IMG/VR virus record: IMGVR_UViG_2778261571_000009
Location: 1 to 4,372 of that record
DNA: 4,372 nt
Strand: one strand, 5' to 3'
Source: a virus
Taxonomy: Duplodnaviria; Heunggongvirae; Uroviricota; Caudoviricetes
Shown here: piece after piece, positions 1 through 4,372 of the stretch
Layout: every line of letters begins with the position of its first letter
How positions within the stretch are numbered: the first letter of the stretch is position 1
Translations under genes and position numbers: made by a program
The notes under the pieces: generated by a model
What the model was told of the DNA's origin: nothing
Seen by the model: the letters and a program-made list of their open reading frames with translations, nothing else
Database searches by the model: none

Positions 1-171
1 ATGTCACTTGCAACCACAGTGAAGGAGAGCAAGTTACAGAGACGCATGTACACGCAGAAAGCTCTCTGGTATCGCCATAATGGTGACCGCGAAGGAATGC
101 GGGTATGCCTTAATTTGTCCAGAGTCGAAGTATTAAACCAGCGTTATTTCCTTGGGCCATGTCCATTCTGA
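1..171 (+). CDS. small ORF (56 aa) directly upstream of erf; possibly an Arf-like accessory recombination protein; may extend upstream of the window
   Basis: ATG at position 1, in-frame TGA at 169-171 (MSLATTVKESKLQRRMYTQKALWYRHNGDREGMRVCLNLSRVEVLNQRYFLGPCPF). Below the size cutoff of the supplied ORF track. Position just 5' of erf matches where arf sits in P22-type left operons (recollection, not sequence-verified). Upstream context is not visible. Confidence 0.4.
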   Translation: MSLATTVKESKLQRRMYTQKALWYRHNGDREGMRVCLNLSRVEVLNQRYFLGPCPF

Positions 172-181
172 GAACAAACAT

Positions 182-787
182 ATGAGCAAAGAATTTTACG
201 CAAGACTGGCAGCTATTCAGGAGAATCTGAACGCGCCAAAAAATCAGTACAACTCATTCGGTAAATATAAATACAGAAGCTGCGAAGATATTCTTGAAGG
301 CGTTAAGCCGTTACTGAATGGTCTGTTTTTATCAATCAGCGATGAAGTTGTGTTGATTGGTGATCGGTATTACGTGAAAGCCACGGCAACTATTACCGAT
401 GGCGAAAACAGTCATACGGCAACCGCTCTTGCACGAGAGGAAGAAAGCAAGAAAGGAATGGATTCTGCACAAGTTACGGGAGCTACAAGCTCTTATGCAC
501 GCAAGTATTGCCTCAATGGTTTGTTCGGCATTGATGATGCGAAAGATGCAGATACAGACGAGCATAAACATCAGCAGAACGCAGCAGCAAAGCAATCAAA
601 ACCATCACCTACACCTGAACAGGTTCTAAAAGCATTCACTGACGCAGCATTGCAGAAAAACACCGTAGAAGAGCTTAAACAGGCGTTCGCCAAAGCGTGG
701 AAGATGCTCGAAGGCACACCGGAGCAGCACAAAGCGCAGGACGTTTACAACATCAGACGAGACGAATTAGAAGGAGCGGCTGCTTAA
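182..787 (+). CDS. erf: Erf-family single-strand annealing protein (essential recombination function), 201 aa
   Basis: ORF 152-787 on the track; I prefer the ATG at 182 (MSKEFYARLAAIQENLNAPKNQYNSFGKYKYRSCEDILEGVKPLL...), which matches my recollection of the P22 Erf N-terminus. The TTG at 152 would only add a 10-aa extension. Stop TAA 785-787. Confidence 0.85.
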   Translation: MSKEFYARLAAIQENLNAPKNQYNSFGKYKYRSCEDILEGVKPLLNGLFLSISDEVVLIGDRYYVKATATITDGENSHTATALAREEESKKGMDSAQVTGATSSYARKYCLNGLFGIDDAKDADTDEHKHQQNAAAKQSKPSPTPEQVLKAFTDAALQKNTVEELKQAFAKAWKMLEGTPEQHKAQDVYNIRRDELEGAAA

Positions 788-1170
788 TGGCACATTCGAT
801 TACTGTAAGACTAAACAAGCCCGCAAGAGAGTTTCAGGCCGGGGAAAATATCGGATTCAACATCCGTGCTGGAGTTCAGTATTACGATCGCCAGACAAAA
901 AAGAAAGAATGGACAAACTACAGCGCCGTTGTATTTGCCAAGCCGGGAGCGCAAGCGGATTACTACCGTAGTGTTCTTGTTGAAGGTGGCATTGTGGAAA
1001 TTACCGGAGAAAACATCAGGGTTGATGTTTATCAGGGGCAAAATGGTCAATCAATCACTCTTGAATTACTGAATGCAAAGATTGGATTTGCAGCTTCAGG
1101 AAATGGCCCGCAGCAGCAAAGTAGTAACCAGCAGAACACTCCTGTATACGACGATTCCATCCCATTCTGA
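787..1170 (+). CDS. ssb: short phage SSB-like single-stranded DNA-binding protein (127 aa) with acidic C-terminal tail ...YDDSIPF
   Basis: ATG at 787-789 overlaps the erf stop (TAATG), with AGGAG at 772-776. The translation ends in DDSIPF, close to the canonical bacterial SSB tail (DDDIPF) that recruits host replication and repair proteins. The central EW...VVFAK...VEGG.VEI.G pattern fits an OB fold. The track start at 697 is an in-frame extension through the erf 3' end and is unlikely. Confidence 0.75.
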   Translation: MAHSITVRLNKPAREFQAGENIGFNIRAGVQYYDRQTKKKEWTNYSAVVFAKPGAQADYYRSVLVEGGIVEITGENIRVDVYQGQNGQSITLELLNAKIGFAASGNGPQQQSSNQQNTPVYDDSIPF

Positions 1171-1193
1171 TTTAGAAAAATAAGGATTTAATT

Positions 1194-1490
1194 ATGCCAG
1201 CGCCTCTGTATGGTGCGGATGACGCGCGCCGCTGTTCCGGCAATTCCGTATCGGAGGTGCTGGATAAATTCAGAAAAAACTACGATCGAATAATGTCTCT
1301 ACCGCAGGAAACGAAAGAGGAAAAGGAATTTCGCCACTGTATATGGCTTGCAGAGAAAGAAGAACGCGAGCGAATTTACCAGACATCAATCCGACCATTC
1401 CGCAAAGCCACATATACCCAATTCCCTGAATATATCGACCCGCGCCTGCGTAATTACCGCTCACGCTATGGCGCTATCAGTAATGACTGA
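1194..1490 (+). CDS. hypothetical protein (98 aa), lambdoid early-left small protein
   Basis: ORF on track. AAGGA at 1182-1186, 7 nt before ATG 1194. Stop TGA 1488-1490. Co-directional and tightly packed with neighbours. No family recognised. Confidence 0.6.
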
Positions 1491-1500
1491 GGAATTTACC

Positions 1501-1668
1501 ATGAGAGGACTTGCATACAATCCCGGCATTCTTCCGGCAGAAATGATTATTCGCCAACGCGTAAAGCCAATGCCATCGAGAGAGGAATTGCTTAAGAGAA
1601 AGAGTTTCGGTTCTGTTAATGACAACAAATATCTGAATGCGATGTTGCGCAAAGGAGGCAACCGGTGA
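1501..1668 (+). CDS. hypothetical small protein (55 aa)
   Basis: GAGGAA at 1489-1494, 6 nt before ATG 1501 ([15 protein letters not shown]...). The track lists a longer 1348-1668 ORF, but its 5' part overlaps the previous gene in another frame and lacks an RBS. Stop TGA 1666-1668. Confidence 0.55.
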
Positions 1669-1748
1669 CTGGACATGCAGCGATCCTCGACATGTGCTGT
1701 GGCAGCCGCATGTTCTGGTTAGATAAGAATGACGAACGGGCGAGATAA
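1665..1748 (+). pseudogene. 27-codon remnant resembling the N-terminus of a class I SAM-dependent (DNA?) methyltransferase; probably a truncated gene
   Basis: Strong AGGAGG at 1653-1658, 6 nt before GTG 1665 (overlapping the upstream stop as GTGA). Translation [27 protein letters not shown] then TAA at 1746-1748. 'ILDMCCGS' resembles SAM-binding motif I (hh-D-x-x-x-G-x-G region) at the start of methyltransferases. The ORF ends after 27 codons just before the next gene. Confidence 0.35.
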
Positions 1749-1798
1749 GCGATCGGTTAAGTGCTATAGTAATGCGCTTTTGTATTTATGGAGTGAAT

Positions 1799-2497
1799 AT
1801 GAAAAATATCCTACTGGCATCATTGTTAGTGGCATCGCCGGGTGCATTTGCAGCCAGCTTTGACTGCCAAAAGGCTTCGACAGCAATCGAACATAAAATC
1901 TGCGATAACGAACGTCTGTCAAAATTAGACGAACAGCTTAGCTCTGCCTATTCTAGTGCCCTCAAAGAAAACCCAGAGAACGCAGACACCATAAAAATGG
2001 TTCAACGTCAGTGGGTAAATATGCGTGGAAAACTCACTGATAATAAGGCTCTGGAGCTGGCTTATCTTATCCAAATTAATGGCCTCAAAGGTTTGGGGAG
2101 TTCAGTCAGCGTAACAGCGGCCAATGAGATACCCACGTCGACGCAGAAACATTCTGAAGAGCAGGAAGAAACAAGTAAGGCAGAAGTTAAGTCGGTCAAG
2201 AACGGCAATAAGCTAACCTTAGAGTCATTCCGAGCTAAATATGTAGAAGTAGATGGTGAGTATTACAGCACGACATCCATTCCTAGAGGCAGTTCGTTCT
2301 TGTTCACTTGCGCCAGTCGTATTGCTGATGACCAAGTGAATGTTTGGAAGAAACATGCAGCCAAAGAGGGCAAAATCGACCTATTCTTTGAGGTTGAGAA
2401 TCACTTACACACTGCTATGTTGAACGCCAATTTCCAGAAGTTGAATTCAGACCCTGCCAAAAGAGGTATTTGTAATCTGATTAACGCAGTGCCGTAA
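1799..2497 (+). CDS. secreted (Sec signal peptide) protein with N-terminal DUF1311/LprI-like domain, 232 aa; candidate moron
   Basis: GGAG at 1790-1793, 5 nt before ATG 1799. N-terminus MKNILLASLLVASPGAFA/AS has a basic n-region, hydrophobic core and AxA cleavage motif. The mature N-terminus SFDCQKASTAIEHKICDNERLSKLDEQLSSAY...QRQWVNMR matches the DUF1311 (LprI/YecT-like) pattern sFDC.kA.t..E..IC.d..L..LD..L...Y...QR.W as I remember it. Followed by a hairpin terminator. The track start at 1772 lacks an RBS. Confidence 0.75.
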   Translation: MKNILLASLLVASPGAFAASFDCQKASTAIEHKICDNERLSKLDEQLSSAYSSALKENPENADTIKMVQRQWVNMRGKLTDNKALELAYLIQINGLKGLGSSVSVTAANEIPTSTQKHSEEQEETSKAEVKSVKNGNKLTLESFRAKYVEVDGEYYSTTSIPRGSSFLFTCASRIADDQVNVWKKHAAKEGKIDLFFEVENHLHTAMLNANFQKLNSDPAKRGICNLINAVP

Positions 2498-2507
2498 GTA
2501 AATTTAG

Positions 2508-2537
2508 GGCCACAGTTGTGGCCTTAAATATTTTTTC
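2508..2537 (+). terminator. putative intrinsic terminator after the DUF1311-like gene
   Basis: GGCCAC (2508-2513) / GTGGCC (2518-2523) stem with loop AGTT, followed by TTAAATATTTTTTC containing a T6 run (2531-2536). The T-tract is 7 nt from the stem, so efficiency is uncertain. Confidence 0.5.
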
Positions 2538-2555
2538 AGCCTTTTCTTATTTGTA

Positions 2556-2580
2556 ATAAGCAGTACTTAGTAGTGCTTAT
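2556..2580. promoter_or_regulatory. imperfect 25-bp palindrome in an AT-rich intergenic region upstream of the TGT-like gene; possible operator or regulatory hairpin
   Basis: ATAAGCAGTACTTAGTAGTGCTTAT has perfect 7-bp outer arms ATAAGCA/TGCTTAT and a partly symmetric core. It lies in the roughly 200-bp visibly AT-rich gap 2498-2703. No convincing sigma70 -35/-10 pair could be assigned by eye. Confidence 0.25.
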
Positions 2581-2703
2581 AAAACAGAATAAAAAACATA
2601 TGACTTTGGCGATTACCCAGTAAAGATATTCGAAATAAATGTAAATATCGGCAATGAATAACAATCCTCGCACTCGCGGGGATTTCTTTTATATGGGGAT
2701 AAT

Positions 2704-3504
2704 ATGACCATCCACTTTCACGGCAGCCCAATATGGGGGGATGAGCATGCCCCTACAGATATGCTGATTAAAGCCCTTTACCGTGATGGTGGGGCTTTTG
2801 TTTCATTTGCCAGACCAGAGCAGATGAAAAAGATTGCCATGTTCCCTTGTGATATACGCCTTGATAACGGCGCTTTTAGCGACTGGATGAAAGCATTAAA
2901 GAAAGGCACTCCGGTAGACTGGAGTAAGAGGCGAGCAAAATTCTACGACTTTGTTGGGAAGTGGTTCAGCAGAATTGAATGGTTTCTTATACCTGACGTT
3001 ATCGAAGGGACAGAGGCAGAAAACGACGAGCAGATTGAGTTGGTTCCTGATTGGCTAAAATCAAAAGCGGTTCCGGTCTGGCATACCGACGAATCAATTG
3101 AACGTCTTTTACGCCTTTCTGGCAAATTTGAATGGGTGGCGATTGGATGCTGCGGCCCACACAGGCACATACGCTCTAAATGGTGGGAACAGAGAATGGA
3201 TGAAGTTTTCACTGAGCTTTATATCAATCGTAATTTGAAAGTGAAAATTCATGGTCTTCGAATGCTCGACGTGAGAGTTCTTGGTATGTATCCGTTCGCC
3301 AGTGCGGATTCTACTAATGTTGCTGTTAACGTACCGAAGACAGAGAAGCGATTTCCTGAGATTACTGACAAACTGGCACGTACAGCTGTACTTCGCGCTG
3401 CTATTGAAAAGGTGCACCCGCCATCGATATCAGCATGGGTAGACAGAAAGATGAGAGAGCCGGCGCAAGCCGGTTTTTTATTTGAATTCACCGACGCCGC
3501 TTAA
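2704..3504 (+). CDS. TGT-like (tRNA-guanine transglycosylase fold) protein, 266 aa, lacking the C-terminal zinc subdomain; candidate DpdA-like DNA 7-deazaguanine transglycosylase
   Basis: GGGG at 2695-2698 before ATG 2704. Colinear motif matches to TGT as I remember it: FVSFARPEQ (TGT FHLWLRPGQ), IRLDNGAFS (ILTDSGGFQ), WFLIPDVIEG (IVMIFDEC), FEWVAIGCCG (FDGYAVGGL), MYPFASADSTNV (DMFDCVMPTR). There is no CxCxxC...H cluster after the last motif. Confidence is for the gene being real; the functional call is inference (about 0.5). Confidence 0.7.
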   Translation: MTIHFHGSPIWGDEHAPTDMLIKALYRDGGAFVSFARPEQMKKIAMFPCDIRLDNGAFSDWMKALKKGTPVDWSKRRAKFYDFVGKWFSRIEWFLIPDVIEGTEAENDEQIELVPDWLKSKAVPVWHTDESIERLLRLSGKFEWVAIGCCGPHRHIRSKWWEQRMDEVFTELYINRNLKVKIHGLRMLDVRVLGMYPFASADSTNVAVNVPKTEKRFPEITDKLARTAVLRAAIEKVHPPSISAWVDRKMREPAQAGFLFEFTDAA

Positions 3505-3522
3505 TGCGGATTTCTTTTATCT

Positions 3523-3549
3523 GAACTCGCTACGGCGAGTTTTGTTTTA
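3523..3549 (+). terminator. putative intrinsic terminator after the TGT-like gene
   Basis: Stem ACTCGC (3525-3530) / GCGAGT (3535-3540), loop TACG, extendable by A3524-T3541, followed by TTTGTTTTA. A weaker CCGC/GCGG hairpin spans the stop codon at 3497-3509. Confidence 0.55.
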
Positions 3550-3561
3550 TGGAGATGATAA

Positions 3562-3729
3562 ATGCACTTCCGAGTAACAGGTGAATGGAATGGAGAACCA
3601 TTCAACAGAGTTATCGAAGCAGAGAACATCAACGACTGCTATGACCACTGGATGCTGTGGGCGCAGATGGCACATGCAGACGTAACCAATATTCGAATTG
3701 AAGAACTGAAAGAACACCAAGCCGCCTGA
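3562..3729 (+). CDS. hypothetical small protein (55 aa)
   Basis: GGAG at 3551-3554, 7 nt before ATG 3562. MHFRVTGEWNGEPFNRVIEAENINDCYDHWMLWAQMAHADVTNIRIEELKEHQAA, stop TGA 3727-3729 inside the loop of the following terminator. Not on the ORF track because of size. No family recognised. Confidence 0.5.
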   Translation: MHFRVTGEWNGEPFNRVIEAENINDCYDHWMLWAQMAHADVTNIRIEELKEHQAA

Positions 3730-3742
3730 TGGCGGTTTTTTT
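3719..3742 (+). terminator. intrinsic (rho-independent) terminator
   Basis: AAGCCGCC (3719-3726) pairs with GGCGGTTT (3731-3738): five G-C pairs, one G-U and two A-U. Loop TGAT, then a T-run through 3742 (GGCGGTTTTTTT). Confidence 0.7.
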
Positions 3743-3756
3743 ATTGGAGACAAGAA

Positions 3757-4101
3757 ATGTCAGATTTGGCTATGAAGGTTTTGAAATGGCAATCGACTGG
3801 CGATGTCGGCATCAGTAGCGCAACTCTTGCCTCAATCGCATGTGGACTGAAAAAGAATATCTATGGTCATCACTTCGGCGCTCCACATGACGTAGCCGAT
3901 TTCCGGCGATGCGTTGCACTTGTTGAGCAGATTCCAGAAATCAGAGATTCATTCGACAAGGTTGCAAAGCGCGTTCCGGCATTCAAAGGAATCCTCAACG
4001 AATGGGATTCCCTCGTTGCTCTGTTGAAGTCTGAAATGAAGACGTACGGGAACAAAGCACCAGAGACTTACAGAAGAATCAGCGAGCTACGCAAGGACTA
4101 A
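3757..4101 (+). CDS. hypothetical protein (114 aa)
   Basis: GGAGA at 3746-3750, 6 nt before ATG 3757. ORF on track. Contains a His-rich segment GHHFGAPHD. No family recognised. Stop TAA 4099-4101. Confidence 0.65.
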   Translation: MSDLAMKVLKWQSTGDVGISSATLASIACGLKKNIYGHHFGAPHDVADFRRCVALVEQIPEIRDSFDKVAKRVPAFKGILNEWDSLVALLKSEMKTYGNKAPETYRRISELRKD

Positions 4102-4140
4102 CCCGCCTCACACTCGATGAGGCCTGTTCATATCTGATAG

Positions 4141-4166
4141 AGCCGCAGTATGGCGGTTTATTTTTG
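4141..4166 (+). terminator. possible weak intrinsic terminator upstream of the AlpA/Xis-like gene
   Basis: GCCGC (4142-4146) / GCGGT (4153-4157) stem with one G-U, loop AGTATG, followed by TTTATTTTTG. A separate 6-bp hairpin GCCTCA/TGAGGC at 4105-4123 has no U-tract. Confidence 0.35.
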
Positions 4167-4180
4167 CCTGGAGAATTAAG

Positions 4181-4372
4181 ATGACCGATACCAGCCTGAT
4201 TCCTGAGAAAGAAGTGATGAACAAGCTCGGTGTTTCATCACGTCAGACAATCTGGAACTATACCAAACGGCACGGATTTCCGAAGCCAGTCAGAACCCAC
4301 CCCAAATCATACCTTCGTGAAGCTGTTGAAGGGTGGATTCTTAACGGTGGCGTTAATCAGAAATGCTCCTGA
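4181..4372 (+). CDS. AlpA-family helix-turn-helix DNA-binding protein; putative prophage excisionase (Xis) or regulator, 63 aa
   Basis: GGAGA at 4170-4174 before ATG 4181. ...EVMNKLGVSSRQTIWNYTKRHGFPKPVRTHPKSYLREAVEGWI... matches the AlpA/Xis-type pattern (L.s.stiy.....g.FPkPv.....s..W...ev..W). Location at the 3' end of the left arm is where xis sits just before int. Confidence 0.8.
   Translation: MTDTSLIPEKEVMNKLGVSSRQTIWNYTKRHGFPKPVRTHPKSYLREAVEGWILNGGVNQKCS

Follow-up and report, generated by a model that had tools for sequence, protein, structure and literature searches.

The window analyzed here comprises 4,372 nucleotides (nt), positions 1 to 4,372 of the viral record IMGVR_UViG_2778261571_000009. 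Given BLAST searches against phage and Escherichia coli collections, it represents the early-left (pL) arm of a lambdoid prophage of the HK97/HK022/HK106/Sf101 type (P22-like). All genes in the window are on the + strand, and accessory cassettes occupy the interval between erf/abc2/DUF2737 and the excisionase gene xis, an arrangement that matches HK97, HK022, HK106, and Sf101. We examined the two boundaries of a gene for a protein of 114 amino acids (aa) at 3757-4101 (PHROG 1229, function unknown). Upstream of this 114-aa gene lies orf55, a 55-aa gene at 3562-3729 that is a homologue of lambda p35 (lambdap35; PHROG 676). Downstream lies a gene for an AlpA-family excisionase, which together with its ribosome site, GCCTGGAGAATTAAG, spans 4166-4372 and starts with the ATG at 4181. 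No Pfam family was found for the 114-aa protein, the 55-aa protein, or the 266-aa protein encoded farther upstream, and the PHROGs of the first two are families of unknown function only. Each boundary carries a terminator-like hairpin, and we consider it probable that the two hairpins belong to one family whose members double as joints between single-gene cassettes.

In both boundary segments, a stem-loop, a T-run, GGAGA, and ATG follow one another in the same order. Hairpin A (AAGCCGCC-TGAT-GGCGGTTT, 3719-3738, or 3719-3742 with its T-run; + strand, as are all features below unless stated) resembles an intrinsic terminator. It has eight pairs, five of them G-C, and a 4-nt loop that contains the stop codon of orf55 (TGA, 3727-3729). 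Its T-run of seven Ts (TTTTTTT, 3736-3742) is followed, at 3743-3759, by ATT, the ribosome-binding site GGAGA (3746-3750), a spacer, and the start codon of the 114-aa gene (ATG, 3757). Hairpin B1 (GAGCCGC-AGTATG-GCGGTTT, 4140-4159, or 4140-4165 with its T-run) forms the left edge of the AlpA-xis unit. It has seven pairs, four of them G-C, a 6-nt loop, and a T-run that is interrupted (TTTATTTTT, 4157-4165), which probably makes it weaker; the GGAGA of AlpA follows at 4170-4174. Both hairpins have the stem of an intrinsic terminator (here, G+C-rich, at least 5 pairs with a loop of 3 to 8 nt), both have a U-tract directly 3' of the stem, and a terminator scan reported both on the + strand, which is the coding strand. 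In its sequence context, hairpin A folds at -13.2 kcal/mol (z = -2.6), and only 3 of 200 shuffled sequences fold as well. Over the entire window, the scan detected 13 terminator-like sites, compared to 3.7 +/- 1.9 in shuffles.

The two segments share a 10-nt core, ATGGCGGTTT, at 3729-3738 and again 421 nt later at 4150-4159, and a repeat finder assigned them to one family with 83% identity over 23 nt. An earlier note on this DNA had claimed a shared architecture and a common core upstream of 3757 and 4181, and the letters that it quoted match those found here. The bare 10-mer is unremarkable, given that about nine such pairs are expected anywhere in 4.4 kb. We compared the hairpins in register, using as a null 764 non-redundant terminator-like sites from about 290 loci. 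Hairpins A and B1 differ essentially in three loop bases (GCCGC-CTG-ATGGCGG compared to GCCGC-ATGGCGG with TAT, TGT, or AGT in the loop). The 7 nt before the T-run are all alike in 2.7e-4 of unrelated site pairs in this null, and the in-register identity of A and B1 (16/24) has a frequency of about 4e-4 in null pairs. Once the 28 possible pairings of + strand sites across the window are allowed for, the chance of such a likeness is roughly 0.01. Because in-register identity is this rare in the null, the likeness of A and B1 exceeds that of a generic stem plus T-run, which answers the concern raised in the earlier note that any two GC-stems followed by T-runs would look this similar. The likeness is beyond the generic level and is not overwhelming by itself; the weight rests on the register and on comparative data, not on the 10-mer.

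The layout of single-gene cassettes, each followed by an inverted repeat, is superficially that of an integron, and integron-like sites have been reported in phages (PMC9892861). A dedicated site-specific system, in which the hairpins would be attC-like cassette sites or the target of a homing nuclease and not terminators, is nevertheless extremely improbable. The stems (5 to 8 bp) and loops (4 to 6 nt) are far below attC size, and every element is oriented with the direction of transcription and carries a U-tract. An Rfam scan of the window at E <= 1 found no match at the hairpins, only a single chance-level match to a small RNA at 2624-2703. Prophage integrases are the sole recombinases annotated at related loci, and no integron-type integrase or nuclease is annotated there or in the window. 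Based on their size and on the lack of an annotated integron-type integrase, we ruled out attC identity.

Hairpin A lies within a conserved block of 60 nt (3682-3741, corresponding to lambda 29106-29165) that comprises the last 48 nt of orf55, the hairpin, and the start of the T-run. This block is 100% identical in lambda, P22, HK620, Sf6, Sf101, and Shiga toxin (Stx) phages; matches were obtained in 168 phage records, with >=99% identity in 130. In the P22 record L06296, the block is described as 'identical to 29106..29165 in bacteriophage lambda' and bears the label of terminator t'I, whose function is given there as 'inferred from identity' to the lambda t'I sequence. A terminator feature is absent at this site from the lambda records NC_001416 and J02459, and the name t'I comes from the P22 record only. 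Among the lambda terminators predicted with ARNold by Bloch et al. (2014), t5 is hairpin A (PMC4195576, Table 4), and in the HK97 record the equivalent hairpin before xis is annotated as a putative terminator. Judged by this identity, hairpin A is a known, named element of lambda and P22 (t'I; predicted t5). The prediction in the earlier note of a combined terminator and ribosome-binding site is in agreement with the t'I annotation, the HK97 annotation, and the ARNold predictions, and we infer from the same sequences that transcription would terminate at either hairpin. We found no Term-seq data for the hairpin A site in the literature. Hairpin A shares with t'I/t5 the preceding 48 nt, the strand, the position at the end of orf55, and the T-run. 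The differences are in what follows, as the next unit is the 114-aa gene in the window, the pI cII box and xis in lambda, and eaC in P22, and in hairpin B1, a variant that is alike in the hairpin only, at 16/19 positions.

On the opposite strand, the hairpin A sequence is annotated in the P22 RefSeq record as the terminator of the antisense aI RNA. This RNA is C1-activated and starts inside eaC (positions 1538-2060 of our locus L295, from P22 NC_002371). In the window, a weak terminator-like site lies on the minus strand at 3715-3735. A cII/C1-type box (TTGC-N6-TTGC, the sign of paI or pI) is absent from 3700-4372, and the number of such boxes in the whole window is at chance level; our literature search on P22 paI yielded nothing usable. 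The orf55-t'I block is also present at 100% identity in a record labeled 'Campylobacter phage CJLB-4' (MW057783.1, 48,361 bp), whose size and match suggest that it may be lambda itself, mislabeled or a contaminant.

In relatives of the window, at least six downstream units stand flush after the T-run of hairpin A. These partners include the 114-aa gene, AlpA-xis, lambda-type xis with the pI cII box, TorI-type xis, an Sf101-type open reading frame (ORF), P22 eaC, and one more. Among 128 exact matches to hairpin A in viral contigs, approximately 52 are followed by lambda-type xis, 35 by TorI, 24 by the 114-aa gene, and 9 by AlpA, with rarer units making up the remainder, and the divergence after the hairpin begins in the T-run in every case. 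Upstream, hairpin A occurs in at least three contexts: after full orf55, after an orf55 tail that follows eaG, and after an orf55 tail that follows a 99-aa gene. In 23 loci, just a 40-nt tail of orf55 and hairpin A are left, after unrelated genes. Hairpin A is therefore a conserved island between segments that are non-homologous on both sides, as expected of a boundary sequence.

The AlpA unit, in turn, has two upstream partners, hairpins A and B1. In E. coli ST12468, orf55 and hairpin A are joined directly to AlpA, and the 114-aa gene is absent. In the alignment, this junction combines the two window segments as a perfect chimera that changes from one to the other inside ATGGCGGTTT, which is equivalent to losing precisely the 421 nt that separate the repeats. 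We counted full-length matches to each junction among 5,426 complete E. coli genomes and found orf55-hairpin A-AlpA without the 114-aa gene in 234, orf55-hairpin A-114-aa gene in 472, and 114-aa gene-linker-hairpin B1-AlpA in 399. The full combination seen in the window was found by BLAST in no complete E. coli genome; the best E. coli matches span 94%, 92%, and 91% of the window and end at 3741-3746, 4103, or 4131-4135. Overall, the motif that the earlier note had proposed to look for at junctions in related phages is present there, both ahead of hairpin A's various downstream partners and at the left edge of AlpA.

These partners bear on a second alternative, a one-off descent in which B1 is a diverged duplicate of A that arose with insertion of the 114-aa gene, or in which one deletion joined A and B1, while all variety of arrangements comes from ordinary homologous recombination in long genes on either side (orf55, the tail of the 114-aa gene, and xis) and not at the hairpins. 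The three loop bases and one stem base by which A and B1 differ fit common descent, and most joints do have long conserved flanks on either side. This history leaves unexplained why hairpin A stands next to at least six unrelated downstream units, and we regard it as very unlikely.

Several observations concern the first bases after hairpin A. P22 eaC and the 114-aa gene have a common ribosome site and first codons (GGAGACAA-AAATGTCAG, with GGAGA and ATGTCAG; window 3746-3763, P22 locus L295 1562-1585) and diverge completely after that. Because the two genes are alike at their starts and then diverge, one mosaic joint lies just inside the coding start. In TorI-type units, an annotated cII-binding site and integration promoter are flush after the hairpin A T-run (TTGCCTGATTTGC; locus L297, which is HK620, 1761-1799, and locus L009, 6243-6262), an arrangement that parallels lambda pI (TTGCGTGTAATTGC). 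The xis units share TTGC(C/G)TG directly after the T-run, which lengthens the microhomology.

The AlpA ribosome site was present in 107 loci, where the upstream hairpin is A in about 40 and B1 in about 67. Both hairpins, when they precede AlpA, end in ATGGCGGTTT(C/A)TTTTTGCCTGGAG, with (C/A)TTTTT directly after the core. Hairpin B1 is always preceded by ATCTGATAGA and a conserved linker, CCGCCTCACACTCGATGAGGCCTGT(T/A)CAT. In the window, this linker (CCCGCCTCACACTCGATGAGGCCTGTTCAT, 4102-4131) forms a small hairpin without a T-run, and it is common to units leading into B1 and to those leading into a third hairpin, B2 (CGCCGCATCAATGCGGC), which stands before lambda-type xis or TorI. As far as can be judged from these alignments, B1 is a weaker variant of hairpin A at the left edge of an AlpA-type excisionase unit. 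The last 50 nt or so of the 114-aa gene (window 4050-4101) are kept as a non-coding remnant after HK97 gp37 (locus L004, 5193-5290) and HK544 gp28 (locus L005, 5142-5230). Such dead gene ends, the tail of the 114-aa gene and the tail of orf55, travel with the linkers.

Two neighboring cassettes are bracketed in a similar way. The predicted lambda terminators t3 and t4 (PMC4195576) correspond to window hairpins at 2663 and 3523. The t3 hairpin (AATCCTCGC-ACTC-GCGGGGATT plus TCTTTTAT, 2663-2692) contains the left copy (2680-2692) of a direct repeat, GGATTTCTTTTAT, whose right copy is at 3508-3520. The right copy is part of a small hairpin element (CGCCGC-TTAA-TGCGG plus ATTTCTTTTAT, 3495-3520) and closes the cassette of the 266-aa gene (2704-3504). 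It is followed by the t4 hairpin (GAACTCGC-TACG-GCGAGTTT) with its T-run and GGAGA (3523-3555). Lambda has no 266-aa gene between t3 and t4, so that in comparison the gene is an insertion there, and it is missing from most relatives. We collected 80 loci via the Erf protein, blind to the hairpins, and compared them to the window with blastn. The 266-aa gene is bracketed by GGATTTCTTTTAT, and in 41 to 45 of these Erf-anchored loci the gene is lacking and the joint lies in the repeat: the right ends of high-scoring segment pairs fall at 2695 in 41 loci, and the left ends at 3508-3510 in 45 loci. In the same manner, orf55 is bracketed by TTTTATGGAGA (3545-3555) and TTTTATTGGAGA (3739-3750), both of the form TTTTAT(T)GGAGA. 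The t3 hairpin was found after at least eight different upstream gene ends, and the t4 hairpin is joined straight to the ribosome site of the 114-aa gene in at least 16 loci. Because the 266-aa and orf55 cassettes are bracketed likewise, the A/B1 pair is one of three adjacent examples. A single duplication or deletion around the 114-aa gene does not explain why t3 and t4, with their many upstream genes, behave likewise.

For the 266-aa gene, the PHROG match is to family 887 ('queuine tRNA-ribosyltransferase', E = 1e-102), with no Pfam match, and the gene may be an accessory gene for a DpdA-like DNA/tRNA transglycosylase. A strong terminator-like hairpin (3454-3479) lies in the last 50 nt of this gene, and two more (3495-3511 and 3523-3542) occur within 90 nt.

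In the Erf-anchored loci, homology to the window stops at 1504, 1645-49, 1668-71, 2695, 3554-64, 3741-47, and 4131-35, and it resumes at 1500, 2603-08, 2655-59, 3508-10, 3678-82, 3734-36, 4051-53, 4103-05, and 4141. Of the 19 breakpoint classes, 10 lie in hairpin zones, which make up 8% of the window (P = 6e-7). Across 53 different haplotypes of orf55, per-site diversity is approximately 0.03 up to 3741 and 0.39 from 3742. We rejected the idea of stronger conservation in the tail of orf55 than elsewhere in the gene, since diversity is approximately 0.02 to 0.06 throughout. Considering the 53 loci that reach a recognizable xis, we detected at least 25 architectures, and presence or absence of the 114-aa gene occurs with each of three xis types, so that all six combinations are represented. 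Such free assortment is also expected from recombination in flanking genes. Upstream of AlpA, a four-gamete test across the 10-nt core, which paired the loop (CTG or TAT) with the C or A 11 nt away, found all four classes (25, 6, 30, and 23 loci), a pattern that descent from a single event leaves unexplained. The chimeric ST12468 junction and the sharp step in diversity suggest that crossovers occurred within the short sequence.

We propose that the hairpins form one family (GCCGC-NNN-ATGGCGG plus a T-run) of intercistronic terminator-like elements fused to the next ribosome-binding site, and this explanation of the boundaries is the one that we think likely to be correct. The setting would be a lambdoid prophage's early-left (pL) operon, which is N-antiterminated. 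Without antitermination, leftward transcription would be halted or attenuated at the hairpins, both between cassettes and ahead of the excision genes, and an antiterminated polymerase would read through them; the hairpins may also stabilize the upstream mRNA. The recurrence of 10 to 25 nt (3' arm, T-run, and Shine-Dalgarno sequence) at every cassette boundary in the arm would provide short homologies, at which single-gene cassettes could be joined, deleted, or inserted by replication slippage or by the phage's single-strand-annealing recombinase (Erf in this case, Red-beta for lambda). Exchange at the hairpins would leave terminator, ribosome site, and reading frames intact. With homologies that are short or diverged, Rad52-like recombinases, an Erf among them, are much more effective than RecA (PMC3945230). 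The earlier note had suggested that such boundary sequences act as microhomologies for modular exchange. The part of this claim that concerns swapping of single genes at the motif is borne out by the ST12468 chimera and by the exchanged partners; the recombination mechanism, and a causal role for microhomology as opposed to merely marking viable joints, we infer from the sequences.

Several points weigh against this explanation. In its context, hairpin B1 folds at -10.6 kcal/mol (z = -0.5), and 51 of 200 shuffles fold as well; with its weak fold and interrupted U-tract, B1 may be a poor terminator. When only non-coding positions are considered, 9 of 13 breakpoints lie in hairpin zones that cover 45% of those positions, a marginal enrichment (P = 0.07), and breakpoint positions alone therefore cannot separate a hairpin from any intergenic spacer. 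Some breakpoints are within genes or just outside hairpins (3678-82, 4051-53, and 4131-35). The four-gamete pattern could result from recurrent C/A mutation in the T-run. In addition, joints can, once made, spread by ordinary homologous recombination in the long flanking genes, and the independent events that formed joints may be few in number.

The main rival explanation, the Hendrix/Juhala view, is that joining is random and selection acts afterward. According to this view, illegitimate recombination makes joints anywhere, those at gene boundaries with intact terminator, ribosome-binding site, and ORF survive, the hairpins are conserved because terminators are required, their likeness is functional convergence, and microhomology plays no part in the mechanism. 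The weak enrichment of hairpin zones within non-coding positions speaks for this view. Intragenic breakpoints that leave dead remnants (the end of orf55 after eaG or the 99-aa gene, and the end of the 114-aa gene after HK97 gp37) are predicted by it, and reviews find that conserved boundary sequences are missing at most mosaic joints (PMC3029335). It does not easily account for direct repeats of 10 to 13 nt located exactly at both edges of three adjacent cassettes, or for the abutment of at least six units to hairpin A at one T-run with no variation in spacer and a step in diversity within 1 to 2 bases. Convergence is also hard to reconcile with the 7-nt identity before the T-run, given its rarity among unrelated terminators. 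On balance, we judge random joining to be unlikely as the full explanation, and we favor joints at a recurring family of terminator-like hairpins.

The remaining genes of the window lie to the left of these cassettes. They are erf (182-787), an ssb-like gene (787-1170), abc2 (1194-1490), the DUF2737 gene (1501-1668), and a gene for an LprI-like lipoprotein (1799-2497). The LprI-like gene is flanked by long spacers (1668-1798 and 2497-2703). Downstream of it are the strongest hairpin of the window (12 pairs, 2502-2529) and an A+T-rich region that contains an inverted repeat of 26 nt (2542-2594). In one relative (L007), a truncated remnant of an S-adenosylmethionine (SAM)-dependent methyltransferase is annotated in the spacer upstream of the LprI-like gene. 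This region looks like a separately acquired insertion.

PMC3029335 credits Susskind and Botstein (1978) and Clark et al. (2001) with the proposal that short conserved boundary sequences are foci of homologous recombination in lambdoid phages. Like those sequences, the window hairpins are conserved islands between non-homologous neighbors that assort freely; they differ in that each unit is a single gene instead of a functional module and in that the shared stretch is only 10 to 25 nt. The HK620 paper (Clark et al. 2001) reportedly related its seven boundary sequences to control signals of early transcription.

The closest analogue in mechanism is the promoter early stem-loop (PeSL) of T4-like phages (Arbiol et al. 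2010, PMC2839356; Comeau et al. 2014, PMC4122927), a repeated regulatory stem-loop with promoter and terminator that mediates modular shuffling in plastic regions. PeSL copies flank small non-essential ORFs, and recombination between adjacent copies deletes, inserts, or replaces single genes (PMC2839356); mini-circles have been demonstrated for PeSLs. The window resembles this system in having repeat copies around three cassettes and in that indels of relatives end in the repeats. In contrast, a PeSL includes a strong early sigma-70 promoter, and none is near the window hairpins: a promoter scan of the whole window found a single site (2394-2421), and none near the hairpins, the 114-aa gene, or orf55. 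PeSLs are also longer, and the window genes are read from pL by an antiterminated polymerase. Because no promoter accompanies them, the hairpins are PeSL-like in part and are not members of the PeSL family. A further, more tentative view, to which we give limited credence, is that the promoter-less linkers (terminator, T-run, and Shine-Dalgarno sequence) of the lambdoid exo-xis/ea region act as a portable 'cassette socket', the functional counterpart of the T4 PeSLs. Here, Erf or Red-beta would capture, delete, or exchange single accessory genes via 10 to 25 nt of homology, and the similarity of the hairpins would be partly selected for evolvability; circular or linear one-gene intermediates might take part.

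Morons (Juhala et al. 2000) are said to have their own promoter and to be expressed from a repressed prophage. The 114-aa and orf55 cassettes are similar to morons in that one accessory gene, together with a terminator, separates two genes of a lambdoid phage as an insert, but they have no promoter-like site and stand in line in the pL operon. We rejected moron identity for these cassettes due to the lack of a promoter.

Both the name of the hairpin A terminator and the idea of recombination at boundaries are already known, and the hairpins are not a new kind of element. What the window adds is a well-resolved instance, a variant copy in hairpin B1, and three bracketed cassettes. For annotation, the hairpins delimit accessory genes next to xis, including candidates for defense or modification functions such as the 266-aa transglycosylase-like gene. 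With hundreds of E. coli prophages that carry alternative joints, the locus is also convenient for a direct recombination assay. It provides a clean, countable case for the debate on how phage mosaics arise, by homologous exchange at linkers or by random joining and selection.

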